Origin: Anaerolineae bacterium
Lineage (GTDB): Bacteria > Chloroflexota > Anaerolineae > B4-G1 > SLSP01
NCBI GenBank assembly: GCA_034435555.1
Contig: DAOTXC010000120.1
Span: forward strand, 3,132-67,131
Reading direction: 5' to 3'
Length of the DNA: 64,000 bases
A program made the position numbers and the translations under genes. How positions within the stretch are numbered: the stretch's first letter is position 1; each line of letters opens with the position of its first letter. The notes under the pieces were generated by a model. That model had not been told where the DNA came from. It was given only the letters and a program-made list of their open reading frames with translations, and searched no databases. Positions 4 to 56,479 of the stretch are shown here, one piece after another.

Positions 4-228
4 GTGACAGTGGTACTCGACAGCGGGGAGGCGCTCGCCGGCGACCTCGTGCGCAGCCAATGGTTGATCGTACCCCGCCCAGCGGCGCGGCCCTTCGTGG
101 CCTGGGATCTCGAGCGCAACGCGGCGAGCGTCCGCGCGCTGCTGGCGCGCCAACCGACGCGCATCCACGTGAGCCACGGGGGGCCTTTCGTCCCTGCCGA
201 TCTGGAAAAGCCGCACCTGACGCAATGA
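4..228 (+). CDS. 3' fragment of an unidentified gene entering from upstream of the window (hypothetical)
   Basis: ORF open to the window edge (GTG at position 4 is probably internal). No recognisable motif. GC-rich genomes produce many spurious ORFs of this size. Confidence 0.2.
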   Translation: MTVVLDSGEALAGDLVRSQWLIVPRPAARPFVAWDLERNAASVRALLARQPTRIHVSHGGPFVPADLEKPHLTQ

Positions 229-2165: not shown

Positions 2166-5100
2166 CTATCTCATAACCTCGAGGCGCTCACCAGCAGGCG
2201 AGGTTTCGCCCAACAGCACCACGATGGTACGATTTTGTGTTGAATCGTGAAAACGATACGCCCGCACCACGTCGCCATCCGTGTACAATTGCGCCAACAT
2301 CTCTTGCACCACCGCAGTATCCTCCAAAGGCACATCGCTGTCCAGCAGCGCCCCGCGCGGATCGTATCCCTGGACGACTTCGAAGCCTTGTTGGCCCAAG
2401 GCGCGGGTGATGAGCTCCATCGCAGAATGTTGCTCCAGGGAAGCAATCAGAGGCAGGCGCTGCGGCGCGCGCGCCAGCAACGCGGCTATTGCTGTCAACA
2501 GGTGTTCAGTATCCACAGGTTTGGTCAAGTAGGCATCGGCCCCCAGCGAAAGCCCCAGAGGACGATCTTCGATGATGGAGAGTACCAGGATGGGGATATT
2601 GGCGGTGAGCGTGTCGGACTTCAGAACTCGCAATACGTCAAAGCCCGAAAGGTCGGGCATCATAATATCGAGCAGGATCAACGCCGGGCGATGCGAGCGC
2701 GCCATCATCAGGGCTTCGGCGCCGGTGGACGCCGTGATGATTTGATAACCAACCTGCGAAAGCTCCTGCGCCAGCAGCGAACGGATGGAGGCTTCGTCAT
2801 CCACGATCAACACGAGCGGCAACACCTCCTCCAGAGGCGGCAGCGGGCCAGTGAGGCCGCGCGGGCGCGCCTCCACCGCAATTGAGGGAGCTTCCTCCAC
2901 GATGCGCATCGCCGGCTCTATCGGCAGCGTGAAATTGAAGCGCGAGCCTTCCCCTAGCACCGAATCCACCCAAATCGCACCCTTGTAATGCGCGACGATC
3001 TCCTGACAGATTGCCAATCCCAATCCTGTGCCCTTGGGCTTCTCGGTCAAGGTATCGGTGGCGAGCTGTTGGAAGCGCCGGAAAATGCGGAGCCGATCCT
3101 GCTCCACAATGCCGCTGCCGGTATCGGCCACCGTCACCAAAACCCCACCACGCGCCGGGGTTTGCCACCCGTGGAGCTCCTCGCCTGGTGCGAGCAAGCG
3201 GATGGAGACACGCACCTGCCCCTCCGCCGTAAATTTGATCGCATTGGACAAGAGGTTATCAAGCACCTGCCGGATGCGCACCGGGTCGGCCACAATGGGC
3301 GGCAGAGGCGCTGCTGGCGGATCAAAGAGCAGGGTGAGGCCCTTCTGCTGCGCCTGAACGCGCCGACGTTCGAGCGCCCGCTCGATGAGCACCGGCAATT
3401 CAAAGGGGTGATCCTGCCATTCGATCTTGCCCGCCTCCATCTTGGCGATATCGAGCACATCGTTGATCAGATCGGTGAGACGCTCGCCCTCGGTGAGGAT
3501 GATCGCCAGGTTGTCGTAGATGCGACGCGCGGCGCGCTGGACGTTGTGCTCACCGTCGGAGAGGGCGGGGAAGACATCGCGCTCGAAGGTGCGATGGATC
3601 AGCTTGGCGAACCCCAGCACCGAGGTCAATGGGGTCCGCAACTCGTGCGAGACGGTTGAGATGAACTCGGTCTTCATCCAGTCAATCTCTTTTTCGTAGG
3701 TGACGTCGCGCAGGATTGTGACCACGCCAATCAGCCGGTCGCGATCAACGATAGCCGCCGAGGAGGCTTTGAAGATGCAGTCCTTGGAGAAAGGAATCTC
3801 AGCCATAAAAGTCGAATCCGGCACGTCGAGCGTGTTGTGGATGAGTTCGCGGAGCTCCGACCTGGCGACGATGGCGCTCAGGGGTTGTCCGATCAACGTA
3901 CTGGCCGACCGCTCGAACATGCTCTCAAAGGCGGGGTTGACCAACAAAATATGATCCTGCGGATCGGTCACAATCAGGCCATCGGCGATATTGAAGAGGA
4001 TAGCGTCGAGCTTGCTCTTGTCCTCGGCGATACTGTGCGCCATCAATGCGAGCTCGTCGGCCCGCCGTTGCGCCGTGCGATAGAGGCGGGCGTTATGCAG
4101 CGCGGCAGCGATGTAGGCCCCAAAGGTCTCCGCACCTTTGACGTCAACGGAGGTGTAGAAATTCGGCTCGTGCTTATCGAGTGTAAGCAGGCCGATGCTC
4201 TGTCCCTGAACGACCAGCGGAACGCCGATCCAGGCCCGAATCTTGCCCGCCCCTTCGACATCGTCCCGCTTGCTGCCCCAGATTGGCTCGCGCTGCACAT
4301 CCGCGACCATCCGCACCTTGCCGGAGCGCATCACCTGGTAGCCTAAATTTTTCTCATTGGGCGAGAAGCTCTTGCCCACCACAGCCTCCGGATCGCGGAA
4401 GCCACGGGCCGCCACAATAGTGATGGTTTCGCTATCTTCGGTGAGCATGATGGAGGCGCTGTCGTATTCGATAATCTCAGCGATTTGCGCGAGCGCCAAA
4501 TCGAAGACCTCATCCAAATCGAGGGTAGAGACGAGCAGTTGCGCCAACCGCGCCAGGCTGGTGACCTGGAGCCGCTGCTCCTCGGCCTCGCGGTAGAGCT
4601 GCGCGTTGTGGATGGCGATGGCCGCCTGAGTCGCAACCGCGGAGAGAATTCGCACATCGCGCTCGGTGAAGGCATCGAGCTGTTGCGCCTCCACGTTGAA
4701 GACGCCGATCAACTTCCCGCTGGCGACCATAGGAACGGCTAGATCGGAACAGGTCGTATCATCAACGGGGATGTAGCCCTCGCACGCCTGCACATTCGGC
4801 ACCGATGACGGTTCACCCGTCGCTGCGACACGCCCGATGATCCCCTCCCCCACTTGCAGGCGCGTCTCTATGGAGACAGAATCGATGTATGCGGCGCGCG
4901 CGGCGATATAGAGATCGCCACGCTCAGGGTCAAGCAGGAAGATGACAGAGTTGCGATAGCCAAAGGTCTCCTCCACGTTCCGAATCAGCCCCTGGAGCAG
5001 CTGGTCGACATCCAGAATCGAGCCGAGGGTGCTGGAGACGTGCTGCAAGGCCACTAATTCGCGGCGCTCCCGCTCTAGCTGGCTTTGTTCCGCGGCGATT

Positions 5101-9788: not shown

Positions 9789-10083
9789 CTTGCAGTTCGG
9801 CGATGTGTTGAGGGCCTAGAGGGATAGTATAGCCACTCTCGCGGAGCAGGTCCTTGAACTCCTCCTGAGAAAGTCCCAGGAGCGACGCAGCGCGTCCAAG
9901 GCTGATATCGCCGTGGTCGTAGGCGCTGATGACCATCTTCTGGCGAGTTTGGGGATGGAGCTGAAACAAAGCGCGTAGGGCGCTGCGCAGGGCCGCTTGC
10001 ATGTCAGGATATTGGCCACTCTTTACCAGGTATTCGAGCTCCCAACTACCCTCGATTACTTGTGTGGGATTGCTCAATTCCAT
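9769..10083 (-). CDS. UPF0175-family protein, putative antitoxin partner
   Basis: ISLGRAASLLGLSQEEFKDLLRESGY motif typical of UPF0175. Start moved to ATG at 10083, which has an SD (AAGGAG) 6 nt upstream. The longer ORF from the track has no RBS. Confidence 0.5.
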   Translation of the reverse strand: MELSNPTQVIEGSWELEYLVKSGQYPDMQAALRSALRALFQLHPQTRQKMVISAYDHGDISLGRAASLLGLSQEEFKDLLRESGYTIPLGPQHIAELQDDVYNA

Positions 10084-15820: not shown

Positions 15821-16108
15821 GTGCTTACTCCCTCAGAAAATAGCCACCAAGAACACAGAGTTCACAGAGAAAAAGAAAAACTCAGCGTGCTCTATGATCT
15901 CTATGGCTTAAATTTTAATCCTCGTTTTCACAACTCTCTCTAGCCCTATTGTAGACCCAAAGCACAATCTCGCCAAGGTGTCAGCTCTCCTCCAAGCCGT
16001 TACAAAATGACACAAAAATCGCCTTGCCTATCGCCCCATAATGTGGTATCTTTAGCCCCACGAGGCGCACGGTGTGCCTCCGATCACCTCAGGTCAAGGA
16101 GTTTGATT

Positions 16109-17811: not shown

Positions 17812-19002
<1,191 letters not shown>

Positions 19003-19188: not shown

Positions 19189-20085
19189 TTACGGAGCCGG
19201 CGGCGTGGGCAGTGGGGAGAGTGCCGGTTCCGGCGCTTCCGGGGCCACGGTCTCTTGCAACAGCGGCTCCAGCGGCGTGACCAGCTCCATCACCGAGGCC
19301 CACAGCGCCTCGAGCTCCGGCCCGACGCGGAACGAATTGGTCGCAATGAGCGCATCCAGGGCCTCGATCCGGGTCTGGAGCGCCTCCAACGTCTCGGCCT
19401 CCTCAGGCAATGCCGCGCGCGCCTGCTCCAGGTGCGCCACAGCGACCGGTAGCATCTCACGGGCCAGGCGCGGGTTATCCTCCAACAGCAATAGCCGCAC
19501 CTTCAGCAAATCCTGCGCCGTCTGCAAAAGCATCATCCGCCCGGAAAGCGTCCCGACCAGCTGGCGCGTATCCCGGGTCTCCGCCAGCCCGGCACTGAGC
19601 TCCACGTTGAGCGTCTCGAGCTCGCGGAGATTCGCCTCCTGAGCGGCGAGCAGCGTCTCCAGATCCGCGAGCGCCTGCGTCAGCTCGTCGAGTTGCGCCT
19701 CAGTATCTGCGATACGCGCCAGCGCCGCTGCGCTCTCCTCGCCGTAAGCGACCAGCTCCTCGCGGGAGGCGGCGAGCTCCGCCAGCTCCGTCAACTGCAC
19801 CTCCAGGCTGGTGATACGCGATTGCAGGGCCTCGACCTGCTCCTGCTCGCGGAGTTGCGTCTGCTCCAGACGCTGCTCCAAGACGGTGATGCGCGCGCGG
19901 TTATCCTGCACCGGTTGTACCAGGGTGCGGTAGCCCCAGGGGATGCCCCAGTAGAGCGCCAGTCCCAGGCCCGCGCCGATGATGAGCACAAACGTCAGGC
20001 GCAACAAGAACTTAAAAATCTTACCCAACGTCTCTCCAGCTACCTGCCATCCCGAACGCCGGGGCGTCGTCGTTTCCTGTGTCAT
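19189..20085 (-). CDS. Hypothetical membrane-anchored coiled-coil protein
   Basis: One N-terminal TM segment, then about 200 aa of heptad-rich Ala/Leu/Glu coiled coil, then a Pro-rich tail. No enzymatic motif. Confidence 0.5.
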   Translation of the reverse strand: MTQETTTPRRSGWQVAGETLGKIFKFLLRLTFVLIIGAGLGLALYWGIPWGYRTLVQPVQDNRARITVLEQRLEQTQLREQEQVEALQSRITSLEVQLTELAELAASREELVAYGEESAAALARIADTEAQLDELTQALADLETLLAAQEANLRELETLNVELSAGLAETRDTRQLVGTLSGRMMLLQTAQDLLKVRLLLLEDNPRLAREMLPVAVAHLEQARAALPEEAETLEALQTRIEALDALIATNSFRVGPELEALWASVMELVTPLEPLLQETVAPEAPEPALSPLPTPPAP

Positions 20086-20096
20086 CTGTTACCTCC

Positions 20097-21023
20097 TCAT
20101 TCACCTGAGGCCGGGGGCGTTTGCGGCCCCTCGCCAAAGATTTCTTGCAAAAGTTCCTGTAGCCGCTCGAAGAAGCGTTGCCCCCGCTCGGCCTGCGACT
20201 GGACGGTCTCCAATTCTGTGGAGAAGACGCCCAGCTGCGCATCAACGGCGTCAGCGTGTTCTTCCAGCGCCAGGGTCTGCTCGCGCAGGGCGGCGACCTC
20301 GGACTCGGCGGCCTGCATCCGCACGGTGAGGCCCTCCAGGGTATCGAGCCGCTGCCGCAGGCTGGTGGCATCGCTGCGCAAGATGGCGATCTGCCCTGCC
20401 AGCGCCTCGGATTGGCTGCGCAGATCCAGCACCGCCTCGCTGTGGTTGATGTCCAGTGAGCCGTTGATGCCGGAAAGCACCAGGAGCGTAAAGACCATGC
20501 CCAGCAGCGCCCCCGCCAACGAGGCCCACAGCCACGCCCAGAAGCTGCTGTTGTTGGTGCTAGCGACCACCGGTGTCGGGGATGTATCAGGAGCGACGGG
20601 CGGTTCAGGTTCGGGGGCCGGTTCAGACTCCAGTTCGGGCAAGGGATCGAAGGTAGGCGCAGCCGGGGGGTTGAGATGCAAGGGGTCTGGGAAGAGCGTC
20701 TCGAGTACAGGGGTAGGTTCCGGCTCATCTTCTGGCTCAGCAGCAGCGACCGGCTCCACTTGCAGGCGCGACGCCCAACGTTCATACAGCACCTCACCGA
20801 TACCGGGGACCTCTTTGAGTATCGCAGGGGACTCAAAGGGGCCTTGCATCTCGCGGTAGGCCAGGATGCGCTGGGCCAATGTCGGGCCAACGCCCTCCAA
20901 CGTCATCAGCTCCGCCTCAGTTGCCCGGTTCAGGTCTACCAGAGGCAACACCGTCGTTTCTTTTTGTGCTTCCAGATTCAAATCTGGCGCGACTTCAAAA
21001 TCCACCTGGTTTTCAGTCTCCAT
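20097..21023 (-). CDS. ComEA-like helix-hairpin-helix protein with central TM segment and C-terminal coiled coil
   Basis: N-terminal LNRATEAELMTLEGVGPTLAQRILAYRE (ComEA HhH motif). Acidic Pro-rich linker. TM FWAWLWASLAGALLGMVFTLLVL. Coiled coil. Confidence 0.6.
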   Translation of the reverse strand: METENQVDFEVAPDLNLEAQKETTVLPLVDLNRATEAELMTLEGVGPTLAQRILAYREMQGPFESPAILKEVPGIGEVLYERWASRLQVEPVAAAEPEDEPEPTPVLETLFPDPLHLNPPAAPTFDPLPELESEPAPEPEPPVAPDTSPTPVVASTNNSSFWAWLWASLAGALLGMVFTLLVLSGINGSLDINHSEAVLDLRSQSEALAGQIAILRSDATSLRQRLDTLEGLTVRMQAAESEVAALREQTLALEEHADAVDAQLGVFSTELETVQSQAERGQRFFERLQELLQEIFGEGPQTPPASGE

Positions 21024-21192
21024 CCTCCACCTCCTCTCTCAAATCAGCAAATCAAAAAATCAGCGAAATAGCAACACTCTTTATTATACGCGCCCCGCCG
21101 CCAGAGTGCAAATCACCGAGAGAAGAAAGAGGTGAAGCGGCTCATCCGCGCATCGGGTCAGCCGCTATATTGTTCAAACGTGCAAATCCCTA

Positions 21193-21483
21193 TCACGATC
21201 CCTTTTTCAAGAGTTGTTGCAACAAGTCACCCAGGTCAGATTCCATCACGATCCCCGGCGTGCCCTGGAAGTTGATGGTGAGGTTCTCGATGACGACGGA
21301 CGCCCCACCTTCGATACCCTCCAACGGAATTCGAGCGGTGATCGGTTGCGACGCGGGTGGTGGCGGCGCTTCAGGTTCGCGCACGGGAGGCGGCGTAACC
21401 TGCGGCGGCGCTTCCAGCGGTGGGTCGGATTGAGCAACGGGTTCGGCTTGCCTGCCTCCGGCCCGGAGGGGCGCTACCACCAC
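21193..21483 (-). CDS. Hypothetical Pro-rich protein (uncertain)
   Basis: Third consecutive minus-strand ORF upstream of the ComEA-like gene. Low complexity, no motif. Confidence 0.25.
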   Translation of the reverse strand: MVVAPLRAGGRQAEPVAQSDPPLEAPPQVTPPPVREPEAPPPPASQPITARIPLEGIEGGASVVIENLTINFQGTPGIVMESDLGDLLQQLLKKGS

Positions 21484-21658
21484 GATCTCGTTCCGCTAGG
21501 GATAGCGGCAAGTCACAAGGGATATTTCGCGTCTGGCGTGCAACTTTCACGCTGTAATTCCGTAATACACTTACAGAGAATGTGACTCATTCGCGCCACG
21601 TGCGCTACGTAAGTGATTTTTGGATTTGCTGATTTGCAGATTTTTACGGAGGTGTATG

Positions 21659-21880
21659 ATGATTGACACGAGTAAAATTCATTGGCTGTTGTGGCCGTTT
21701 GCCGCGCTGTGGAACCTGCTCTGCTGGATTCTGCAGGTGACCGGACGCCTGATCGCAGCAATTTTGGGGCTGGTCATCTTCATCGTCGGGATTGTGCTGA
21801 CGCTGACCGTGATTGGCGCGATTGTGGGCATCCCGCTGGCGATCTTCGGCCTGTTGCTGATGGTGCGGGCGATCTTCTAG
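21659..21880 (+). CDS. Small hydrophobic membrane protein (two TM), hypothetical
   Basis: 74 aa. GGAGG lies 6 nt before the ATG at 21659. The track ORF begins at a TTG inside the GATTT repeat element and is probably too long. Confidence 0.5.
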   Translation: MIDTSKIHWLLWPFAALWNLLCWILQVTGRLIAAILGLVIFIVGIVLTLTVIGAIVGIPLAIFGLLLMVRAIF

Positions 21881-21958: not shown

Positions 21959-24547
<2,589 letters not shown>

Positions 24548-24652
24548 CCCCCCTCAAAAATCAGTAAAATCGCCATGCTACTTTCATTCTAACCGATTCA
24601 CATTAGAAGCCCATTAACGCCATATAAGAAGCATCTTTGCGCCGGGCAGATG

Positions 24653-27753: not shown

Positions 27754-28566
27754 TTAGTACTTGCGCACGATGGCGCGGTACGCGCCCGGCTGCCGCGCCA
27801 GAATGATCTGGCTGTCCTCGCGCACCTGCCGCACCTCGTCCATATCCAGCCGCACCATGACGTAGCCTTCCTCCGGCTCCTCGAGGGCAGCGAGCACCTC
27901 GCCACGGGGGCTGAGCACCGCGCTCTGCCCGGCGAAGGTGTACGAGGGTTCCTCGCCGATGCGGTTGGCCGCCGCGACAAAGACGCCGTTTTCGTAGGCG
28001 CGGGAGACCAGCAGCGTGCGCCACATATCGGACTCCTGGGCCTGCCAGGCCGCCGGCACAACCAGCACCTCCGCGCCCTCAAGGACCAGATTGCGCGCAA
28101 CCTCCGGGAAGGCGAGGTCCCATCCCAGCACCACACCGATGACGCCCACTTCGGTCTCGATGGGAGCGATTTTGTAGCCGGGGCGGAAGACCAACCGCTC
28201 CTCCGCCGGGAGGTGAACCTTGCGGTAGGTGCCCACGGGCGCACCATCCGGCCCAATCAGGACCGCGCTGTTGTACAACACCGTCTCAACCTTCTCCTTC
28301 TCCGCCATCCCGATGAGGACGTAGATACCGAATTCGCTGGCGTGTTGCCCCAGGATGTTGGTCACAGCGCCGGGGACCCGCTGCGCAAATTGCGAGAAGC
28401 GCGAGCCGCCCTCGCAACCGGTCACGGAGAGTTCGGGGAAGACGATCAGATCCACGGCTTGCTGCGTGGCGATGTTGGCGATCATGTCGGCCATTTTGCC
28501 GACATTGGCCTCCAGTTTGCCCAACTGGGGTTCCATCTGGACAACGGCAATGTTCAATTGACGCAT
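27754..28566 (-). CDS. Carbon-nitrogen hydrolase (nitrilase superfamily)
   Basis: Catalytic triad context: FPEL (Glu), RK (Lys), LGWDLAFPE (the catalytic Cys position is replaced, checked by alignment only). 270 aa. Confidence 0.8.
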   Translation of the reverse strand: MRQLNIAVVQMEPQLGKLEANVGKMADMIANIATQQAVDLIVFPELSVTGCEGGSRFSQFAQRVPGAVTNILGQHASEFGIYVLIGMAEKEKVETVLYNSAVLIGPDGAPVGTYRKVHLPAEERLVFRPGYKIAPIETEVGVIGVVLGWDLAFPEVARNLVLEGAEVLVVPAAWQAQESDMWRTLLVSRAYENGVFVAAANRIGEEPSYTFAGQSAVLSPRGEVLAALEEPEEGYVMVRLDMDEVRQVREDSQIILARQPGAYRAIVRKY

Positions 28567-28576
28567 AGTTTTATCT

Positions 28577-28611
28577 CCTTGAAAATCTGAAAATCAGCAA
28601 ATCTAAAAATC
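28577..28611 (-). promoter_or_regulatory. Leader element: four tandem 8-nt GATTTNNN repeats abutting the SD of the CN-hydrolase gene
   Basis: mRNA sense: GATTTTTA GATTTGCT GATTTTCA GATTTTCA AGGAG ATAAAACT AUG. A near-identical element lies at 21614-21646. Confidence 0.5.
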
Positions 28612-32764: not shown

Positions 32765-33184
32765 ATGAAAGTATTGGCCTTCAATGCTGATCTTTGCACG
32801 GGCGCGCGCGAGTGCGAGGCCGCCTGCGCTCAGACATGGTTCAAGGTGCAAGACGCCGCCAAATCCAGCATCCGCATCAGCACGAAAGATAACGGCTTCA
32901 GCGCCGCGTTCTGCATTCAGTGCGGCAAGTGCATCGAGGTTTGCCCCACCGAGGCGCTTTACTACAACAAGCAGGGTGTCGTCCTGCTGAAGAAAGACCT
33001 GTGCGTGGGCTGTATGTCGTGTGTGGGCTTCTGCCCCTACGACGTGATGTACTTCGCGCCGGAAGAGGCCATCGCCTTCAAGTGCGTCGCCTGCGGGCAG
33101 TGCGTCAAAGCGTGCCCAAATGACGCGCTGAAGATCGTGGAGGTCGAAGAGGCTTCTACAGATGTGTGGAATTTGCGATTTTAG
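32765..33184 (+). CDS. Poly-ferredoxin (three or four 4Fe-4S cluster motifs), probable electron partner of AOR
   Basis: CIQCGKCIEVCP. CVGCMSCVGFCP. CVACGQCVKACP cluster motifs. 139 aa. Confidence 0.8.
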   Translation: MKVLAFNADLCTGARECEAACAQTWFKVQDAAKSSIRISTKDNGFSAAFCIQCGKCIEVCPTEALYYNKQGVVLLKKDLCVGCMSCVGFCPYDVMYFAPEEAIAFKCVACGQCVKACPNDALKIVEVEEASTDVWNLRF

Positions 33185-33236
33185 ATTTGGGAGATTTCAC
33201 CGCAAAGACGCAAAGATTTCAGAGAGGGCTTGACGA

Positions 33237-35956: not shown

Positions 35957-35985
35957 GCATCTTAATGTTTTTAGCCACAAATTTG

Positions 35986-36037
35986 CACGAATTTGACGAA
36001 TTTTTTGAAAATATGTGAGAATTCGTGGAATTCGTGG
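35986..36037. promoter_or_regulatory. Operator-like 2x2 repeat site: two direct ACGAATTT units and two direct AATTCGTGG units in inverted orientation
   Basis: CACGAATTTGACGAATTTTTTG ... GAGAATTCGTGGAATTCGTGG. Lies between the AOR stop and the MoaD-like gene. Confidence 0.4.
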
Positions 36038-37498: not shown

Positions 37499-37612
37499 AC
37501 TCTAGCACACAAATCGTAAAAAGACAATTTATAAAAGAAGTTGAAAAATTAAATCGCGCATTTCCCATTTGGATATTTAGAAGTACAATTGTGTAGTTAC
37601 TTCTAATCTGTG

Positions 37613-56156: not shown

Positions 56157-56479
56157 GATCGCTACACATCATAGGACTTACGCCATCACGCGGCCTCAAC
56201 ATCTTCAACCGCAGAGCGCGCAAAGGACGCAGAGTTTTTTGTTAAAAACCCGCCGACGTTGCTCAAAAAGACGGTTTTTGTTGTGCCAAGATGTTGAGAA
56301 AGTACTTTATAAAAATTCTCTTTGCGCTCTCTGCGTACTCTGCGGTTAGGTTCTCGATACTTGCGTAAGTCCTGATCAGAAAAGCCAGGGTTGGAACAGA
56401 TTCCTGCTTGTTCATGGAACAAATATGCCGGTTCCTACGTCTTTAAGATGTAGGCAAAACAGGAAAACAGAAGGAGGAT

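Follow-up and report, generated by a model that had tools for sequence, protein, structure and literature searches.

Tandem GATTT repeats adjoining the Shine-Dalgarno sequences of unrelated genes in an Anaerolineae genome

At least four to five copies of a short tandem repeat built on a GATTT core are present in the 64-kb window (the whole stretch of Anaerolineae DNA analysed here, 64,000 nucleotides), where they stand immediately before the Shine-Dalgarno (SD) sequences of genes. The repeat is real and non-random. With dinucleotide-preserving shuffles of the window (61% G+C) as the null model, GATTTNNNGATTT has 8 matches against 0.07 expected, GATTTGCTGATTTG with up to two mismatches has 6 against 0.48, and the three-unit pattern with up to three mismatches has 10 against 0.62; independent evidence comes from Tandem Repeats Finder (TRF), which calls arrays of period 8 at 21040-21074, 21623-21643 and 28580-28611, with 2.6-4.4 copies and 75-92% matches. 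The reading that we tentatively favour is that these arrays form a lineage-specific repeat family of 5' leaders, which would offer a U-rich, single-stranded tract upstream of the SD and exert a generic effect on translation initiation or mRNA decay.

Array C and the HHH_3 gene

Array C (21041..21061, minus strand) reads GATTTTTT GATTTGCT GATTT, in which the GATTT core comes three times with period 8 (21061->21041); its tandem unit, GATTTNNN, repeated three times, is an imperfect octamer that is written GAUUUGCU as RNA. In the reverse complement of 21021-21066, GCTGATTTTTTGATTTGCTGATTTGAGAGAGGAGGTGGAGGATG, a GCT lies 5' of GATTTTTT GATTTGCT GATTT GAGAGAGGAGGTGGAGG ATG, in which GAGAGAGGAGGTGGAGG is an extended SD (21024..21040, minus strand, 21040->21024) abutting the array, and the ATG (21023-21021, minus strand) is the start codon of a gene for a 308-aa protein (20097..21023, minus strand) that is also called in the public annotations of L001 and L129. 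The protein has an HHH_3 domain at its N-terminus (Pfam PF12836, E=8.4e-19), and the initial annotation, which had placed three GATTT units directly before the SD of a ComEA-like gene, is borne out by the sequence as quoted and by this Pfam match. A sigma-70-like promoter, TTTGCA-18 nt-TATAAT (21083..21112, minus strand), matches the consensus at 10/12 positions and predicts a transcription start at ~21076, a 5' untranslated region (UTR) of ~52 nt and a beginning of array C at ~+15; as the promoter is a consensus match only, array C should be regarded as a predicted, not an observed, part of the 5' UTR.

In the HHH_3 protein the HHH domain is followed by a Pro-rich linker, then by a hydrophobic segment, and the tail is coiled-coil-like. 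Both in the window (19189-21023) and at loci L124-L128 its gene is always followed next by a gene for a ~290-aa protein, which has no strong Pfam match, and the two genes are a conserved module among Anaerolineae relatives. Relative to the ENA assembly L129, the HHH_3 gene of the window has a 12-nt in-frame indel at 20601, in the Pro/Glu-rich linker (308 versus 312 aa), and at four clustered substitutions (19630-19636) L001 and L129 agree with each other against the window.

It had been noted that a second copy lies about 550 bp away on the opposite strand and that two divergent genes therefore each carry their own. The second copy is array B, with 551 nt between the arms, and both genes do have an array; they do not, however, directly adjoin each other. 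The interval contains a 96-aa open reading frame (ORF) (21193..21483, minus strand), a 13-bp terminator-like hairpin 3' of this ORF (21136..21166, minus strand, found by inverted-repeat search), which parts the ORF from the promoter of the HHH_3 gene, and that promoter-like site itself, so the pair does not share a control region. A shared device that co-regulates a divergent pair is not supported, in view of these intervening elements and of the same array preceding the CN_hydrolase, tgt and clpB genes too. The 96-aa ORF, located between arrays B and C, is a called gene in two public annotations and its N-terminal half is Pro-rich, yet it has neither a Pfam match nor a homologue beyond its own species among 5.8 billion proteins searched; it is possibly an orphan gene, or else no gene.

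Arrays B and C together constitute an inverted pair, with 23-nt arms that are 96% complementary and 551 nt apart. This geometry is what two leaders pointing away from each other would produce, and since the remaining copies are solitary we regard the pair as a by-product.

Other copies in the window

Array B (21615..21643, plus strand) has four units, GATTTTTG GATTTGCT GATTTGCA GATTT, followed by TTAC-GGAGG-N4-ATG and a gene for a 74-aa hydrophobic small membrane protein (21656..21880, plus strand). Array A (28583..28611, minus strand), likewise of four units, GATTTTTA GATTTGCT GATTTTCA GATTT, continues with TCA-AGGAG into a CN_hydrolase gene (27754..28566, minus strand; Pfam E=4.5e-59). Array D (18982..19002, minus strand) is degenerate, GATTTGCT GATTCACA GCTTT, and lies upstream of the SD of tgt (17812-18960, minus strand), while array E (24556..24571, minus strand) has two units with a spacing of 9, GATTTTAC-T-GATTTTT, and abuts the SD GAGGGGGG of clpB (ATG at 24541, minus strand). 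A possible degenerate copy, GGAATTTGC GATTTTA GATTTGGGA GATTTCA (33168..33199, plus strand), comes after a ferredoxin gene; no confirmed gene start adjoins it.

The copies resemble one another beyond the core. Arrays A and B are identical at 29 of 32 positions, and A, B and C have the same order of unit variants, namely a T-rich unit, a GCT unit and a K-C/A-R unit; across the copies GATTT is almost invariant and the three spacer bases vary. All five arrays are sense-oriented, with the last core 0-6 nt from the SD of a gene, and each is followed by a strong SD (GGAGG, AGGAG, GAGGAG or GAGGGG). The five leaders are the most U-rich in the window (20-22 U per 50 nt before the start), and the five genes, encoding the HHH_3 protein, the small membrane protein, CN_hydrolase, Tgt and ClpB, are functionally unrelated. 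The similarity ends at the array edge, the upstream flanks being unalignable; the copies share nothing beyond the array, and we therefore rejected the notion that they are copies of a mobile element.

Further intergenic repeats with other units are found in the window at 33201-33216, 35976-36003, 36019-36037, ~37575-37600, 56318-56344 and ~15860-15930, their units being CGCAAAGA x2, CACGAATTTG x2.9, GAATTCGTG x2.1, AATCCGTG x2, CTCTCTGCG x3 and CACAGAG/CTCTATG. The CGCAAAGA repeat occupies the spacer between ferredoxin and AFOR, and the orthologous L132 spacer contains a corresponding repeat, GCGCAAAG x2.9.

RNA structure and leader tests

Several specific roles for the arrays were considered and rejected. 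A structured cis-regulatory RNA is disfavoured because Rfam gives no match at the gathering threshold in the whole 64-kb window, and even a permissive search (E<=10) near the arrays returned chance-level matches only, none of which overlapped an array; four array leaders fold no more stably than their shuffles (z = -0.27, -1.52, +1.05 and +0.58, none significant), and their minimum-free-energy (MFE) shapes differ, with no common fold. A role of the array in keeping the ribosome-binding site (RBS) unpaired was dismissed since no consistent gain in opening energy was seen against 150 random and 150 shuffled replacements; in the leader of array C the predicted opening of the RBS is even costlier than with random replacements (10.2 versus 7.8 kcal/mol). 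A three-frame stop cassette, conceivable from the TGA in each unit, was discarded because stops in all frames occur in three of five array leaders versus 9 of 24 others. Direct-repeat operators of the OmpR/PhoB or ToxR type lie at or upstream of the -35 element, are phased at ~10-11 bp and serve functionally linked genes; this type was rejected because array C lies downstream of the predicted -10 element, has a period of 8 and is one of a set that serves unrelated genes.

The clpB leader (24518-24600, minus strand) is an exception in its folding, with -23.3 kcal/mol, z = -3.9 and none of 200 shuffles as stable, and with the start codon region paired. It is a candidate for a thermometer-like or otherwise regulated leader, as far as the folding model goes.

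Conservation and turnover

By the names of near-identical EF-G sequences and of CN_hydrolase homologues, the window comes from an uncultured member of the Anaerolineae (Chloroflexota). Two other assemblies of the same species are 99.87-99.89% identical to the window, of which L129 covers five arrays and L001 three. The arrays that they cover are unchanged with a single exception: in one strain-level relative the first unit of array C has T7 in place of T6 at 21053, one of only two indels in 21 kb, which shifts the unit spacing from 8 to 9. Unit number is equal in the three ~99.9% identical assemblies, this 1-nt T-run indel being the sole change in array C. The indel indicates that the site of array C is slippage-prone and that a spacing of 8 or 9 is tolerated, which implies that exact phasing is not essential.

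Beyond the species the arrays are soon lost from view. Five loci with HHH orthologues (37-47% identity) have no GATTT array at the leader, and five syntenic loci with CN_hydrolase orthologues (80-84% identity) have none in the leader or in the rest of the 64 kb that these loci cover; taken together, the two sets of loci have no GATTT array in ~110 kb. The gene order dksA-lspA-rluD-CN_hydrolase is conserved in the CN_hydrolase relatives. Their intergenic regions contain many other tandem repeats of period 7 or 8, varied in composition and sometimes A-rich, and the leader repeats among these show no consistent U-richness on the sense strand; these other 7-8-nt repeats are in keeping with a mutational habit, not with selection for a U-rich signal. 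In L134, whose CN_hydrolase is 80% identical, an AACTTTC repeat (x4.4, 9950-9980) stands right before the SD of the orthologous leader, in the same leader position as array A and with a different unit. A metagenome scan with the HHH protein yielded two distant, uninformative loci only.

The initial annotation had named lack of conservation and simple AT slippage as grounds on which the motif might be set aside. The first holds in part, in that orthologous leaders of the nearest relatives are without the array; as to the second, the arrays do belong to a slippage-type repeat class, but their sense orientation and SD adjacency exceed what random slippage would give. Judged from sequence comparison, the element would be classed as a slippage-generated short tandem repeat that turns over quickly.

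Occurrence in other genomes

A scan for GATTTNNNGATTTGCTGATTT with one genome per species gave at least 120 stretches. Among the 80 matches listed, ~27 are from metagenome-assembled genomes (MAGs) of Chloroflexota/Anaerolineae with 56-66% G+C and ~35 from Bacteroidota. Arrays of the octamer GATTTGCY recur in many Chloroflexota/Anaerolineae MAGs; in the matching genomes they range from 3 to 30 units, the units drift (GCT, GCC, GTT and others), and neighbouring arrays are often built of quite different 7-8-nt units. At the GC-rich loci among the matches listed, 12-13 sense arrays end 11-54 nt before a start codon, 11 of them at 11-31 nt, and at most three antisense arrays lie within 20 nt of a start. 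The Pfam-confirmed genes after sense arrays are again unrelated: patatin, phosphoglycerate kinase (PGK), NurA, CydB (cytochrome bd subunit II), 6-phosphogluconate dehydrogenase (6PGD, twice) and a LiaF-like protein. In eight cases outside the window an SD adjoins the array, and here, as with all five copies in the window, 0-6 nt (mostly 1-4) separate the final core from the SD; the SD stands approximately where the following array unit would fall. Some arrays fill the spacer between co-directional genes and must therefore be transcribed.

One case points to retention of an array at the same gene. Three MAGs have octamer arrays, of 30, 4 and 2+2 units, in the gnd leader, and the gnd proteins of the two that were compared (L033 and L060) are 56% identical; on these sequences it would count as one positive case. 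Given the strict strand and SD position, the conserved core and the recurrence across Chloroflexota lineages, the GATTT family is above noise.

Genes for PF05635 proteins (23S_rRNA_IVP, bAvd-like four-helix bundle) are found between short tandem arrays at L060 2337-2875 (Pfam match at 2427-2831, E=8e-15), L033 ~1761-2525, L064 27-560 and L132 2594-3061. Three Chloroflexota MAGs have the succession antisense AAATC array, IVP gene, sense GATTT array, SD and gnd, and in L132 the IVP gene sits between AFOR and ThiS with heptamer arrays on both flanks. This suggests a PF05635 cassette associated with the repeats.

Possible origin and role of the arrays

We propose, with due reserve, that the arrays arise by slipped-strand expansion, a habit of a clade rich in intergenic 7-8-nt repeats, and that leaders may retain them as U-rich tracts, essentially single-stranded, located at about -18 to -50. 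There the mRNA would meet the 30S platform together with ribosomal protein S1, or else a cold-shock-domain protein or another binder of single-stranded RNA, and the outcome would be a generic tuning of translation initiation and/or mRNA stability rather than a gene-specific switch. The feature expected of a U-rich enhancer, a U-rich tract with no stable predicted fold directly 5' of the SD, is present. Counting against the proposal are the orthologous leaders without the array, the differently composed 7-8-nt repeats of the relatives, the RBS opening that is not consistently eased and the spacing indel in array C. The Anaerolineae are abundant and mostly uncultured, and to our knowledge their gene regulation is almost unstudied; if the arrays act on translation or decay, they would represent a simple and fast-evolving way of retuning arbitrary genes in this class.

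The main rival is neutrality with positional tolerance, the other three alternatives being lesser ones. In this somewhat unlikely explanation the arrays are functionless simple-sequence repeats, produced by the slippage habit of the clade and tolerated between promoter and SD. Several findings agree with it: unrelated period-7/8 repeats are intergenic both in the relatives and in the window, other MAGs have long perfect arrays, their units drifting, in numerous contexts, unit number varies between species in the gnd leaders and in the Spirochaetota loci L002 and L003, array C has its T6/T7 indel, orthologous leaders go without the array, and predicted RBS accessibility is unaffected. What neutrality does not predict is that five out of five arrays in the window are sense-oriented and reach to within 0-6 nt of the SD, that other Chloroflexota have a sense bias, that the GATTT core stays constant with varying spacers, and that A, B and C follow the same unit order. 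If the arrays are nonetheless neutral, they are slippage hotspots relevant to assembly and annotation and could serve as strain markers.

The suggestion that the arrays are binding sites for a trans-acting regulator, generalised from the divergent pair to a regulon of all array-bearing genes, appears improbable to us. The regulator could be an RNA-binding protein, a small RNA (sRNA) with AAAUC repeats or a DNA-binding roadblock. A 5-nt conserved core that recurs at a fixed period, its spacers being free, is what marks a multimeric binding site, the unit order is common to the copies, the SD adjacency would be ideal for translational repression or activation, and a like proposal exists for the TAACTGA repeats (PMC4679880). 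However, the downstream genes are functionally unrelated, the 8-bp period misfits the helical phasing of double-stranded DNA binders and units may be spaced 8 or 9 apart, array C lies downstream of the -10 element and not at the promoter, and no AAATC-type sRNA candidate was found in the window; moreover, the nearest relatives are without the sites, so that any dedicated regulator would need to have arisen very recently.

To a bolder extension of our preferred reading we likewise give little weight. It supposes a Chloroflexota-wide post-transcriptional code, in which translation or decay of a lineage-specific gene set would be governed by a dedicated binder (an S1 variant, a cold-shock-domain protein or another OB-fold protein) that reads the periodic GAUUU cores beside the SD; the arrays would be seeded and turned over by a repeat-generating process that is possibly PF05635-linked.

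The classical preference of RNase E is R-A-U-U-W. Each GAUUU fits it, the tract is U-rich and predicted to be single-stranded with no stable fold, and some MAG arrays lie inside operons, for example before cydB or in a stop-start gap of 51 nt; judging purely by motif resemblance, the arrays might conceivably be endonuclease entry or processing sites that set mRNA half-life or split cistrons 5' of the SD, which we consider very unlikely.

Almost no credence is due to the view that the arrays at 21040-21062 and 21614-21636 are inverted arms of one unit (a promoter segment able to invert, a small mobile element with its terminal inverted repeats, or a long RNA stem around the 96-aa ORF): the complementary arms of a MITE or invertible segment are there, a promoter-like site lies inside near one arm, and the succession of antisense array, small ORF, sense array, SD and gene recurs around PF05635 and gnd in three MAGs, but A, D and E are solitary with the same relation to the SD, so that a pair of leaders in opposite orientation is enough to explain the geometry, the flanks show no target-site duplication, and the segment between B and C has one orientation in three independent assemblies.

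Comparison with known repeats

A literature search found no description of GATTT-type octamer arrays, and nothing specific came from a search for surveys of repeats in Chloroflexi. By analogy, the closest described system would be the TAACTGA heptamer repeats of Beggiatoaceae. These direct repeats occur in marine Beggiatoaceae, some Cyanobacteria and Bacteroidetes (MacGregor 2015, PMC4679880), where two to six forward copies stand a few nucleotides upstream of the starts of unrelated genes; in the Beggiatoa genome, in which a canonical SD is rare, they overlap or replace the ribosome-binding site, and S1, Csp or CsrA-type binders have been proposed for them (PMC4679880). The GATTT arrays are alike in having 2-4 sense units near the starts of five unrelated genes, a patchy phylogeny with longer arrays elsewhere in other taxa, and no predicted structure. 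They differ in that their octamer unit combines a 5-nt conserved core with a free spacer and is no perfect heptamer, that they stop before a strong canonical SD which is retained, and that the phylum is Chloroflexota. If they act, they would be a second, independent example of start-codon-proximal repeats next to those of Beggiatoaceae and cyanobacteria, and a more tractable one, owing to the retained SD and the defined core motif.

The cyanobacterial STRR heptamers are comparable short tandem repeats. In a wider sense the GATTT arrays belong to the class of simple-sequence repeats (SSRs) with 5-11-nt units, of which long examples are reported in prokaryotes (Mrazek et al. 2007, as related in PMC4679880 and PMC4060949). 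The likeness to this class, as far as those accounts portray it, lies in short tandem units that are sporadic across lineages, occur chiefly in non-coding DNA and are gained and lost by slippage; the head-to-tail GATTT copies are longer than chance and differ in unit number between species. Unlike the repeats portrayed there, the window copies are short (3-4 units), imperfect and tied to strand and SD position.

The AU- or U-rich translational enhancers of E. coli mRNAs, attributed to work by Boni and Komarova, are reportedly S1-binding sites 5' of the SD. As in those, an unstructured U-rich tract stands just upstream of the SD in the region of the 30S platform. The E. coli enhancers, in contrast, are not periodic repeats with a conserved pentamer, and the GATTT arrays bring no predicted gain in RBS accessibility.

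Contingency loci are phase-variable SSRs in promoters or coding regions. Unlike these, the window arrays lie between promoter and SD, where a change of units affects neither a reading frame nor the -35/-10 spacing, and they show no unit-number polymorphism among the three assemblies. The same octamer does behave like a contingency locus in Spirochaetota, where it is antisense in the 5' coding end of a lipoprotein-like ORF (L002 ~2990-3100 and L003 ~380-440): with 4 units the frame is open for at least 200 aa through the lipobox (FGC), and with 9 units it meets a stop after 46 aa, which, from the two sequences, looks like classical repeat-mediated phase variation.
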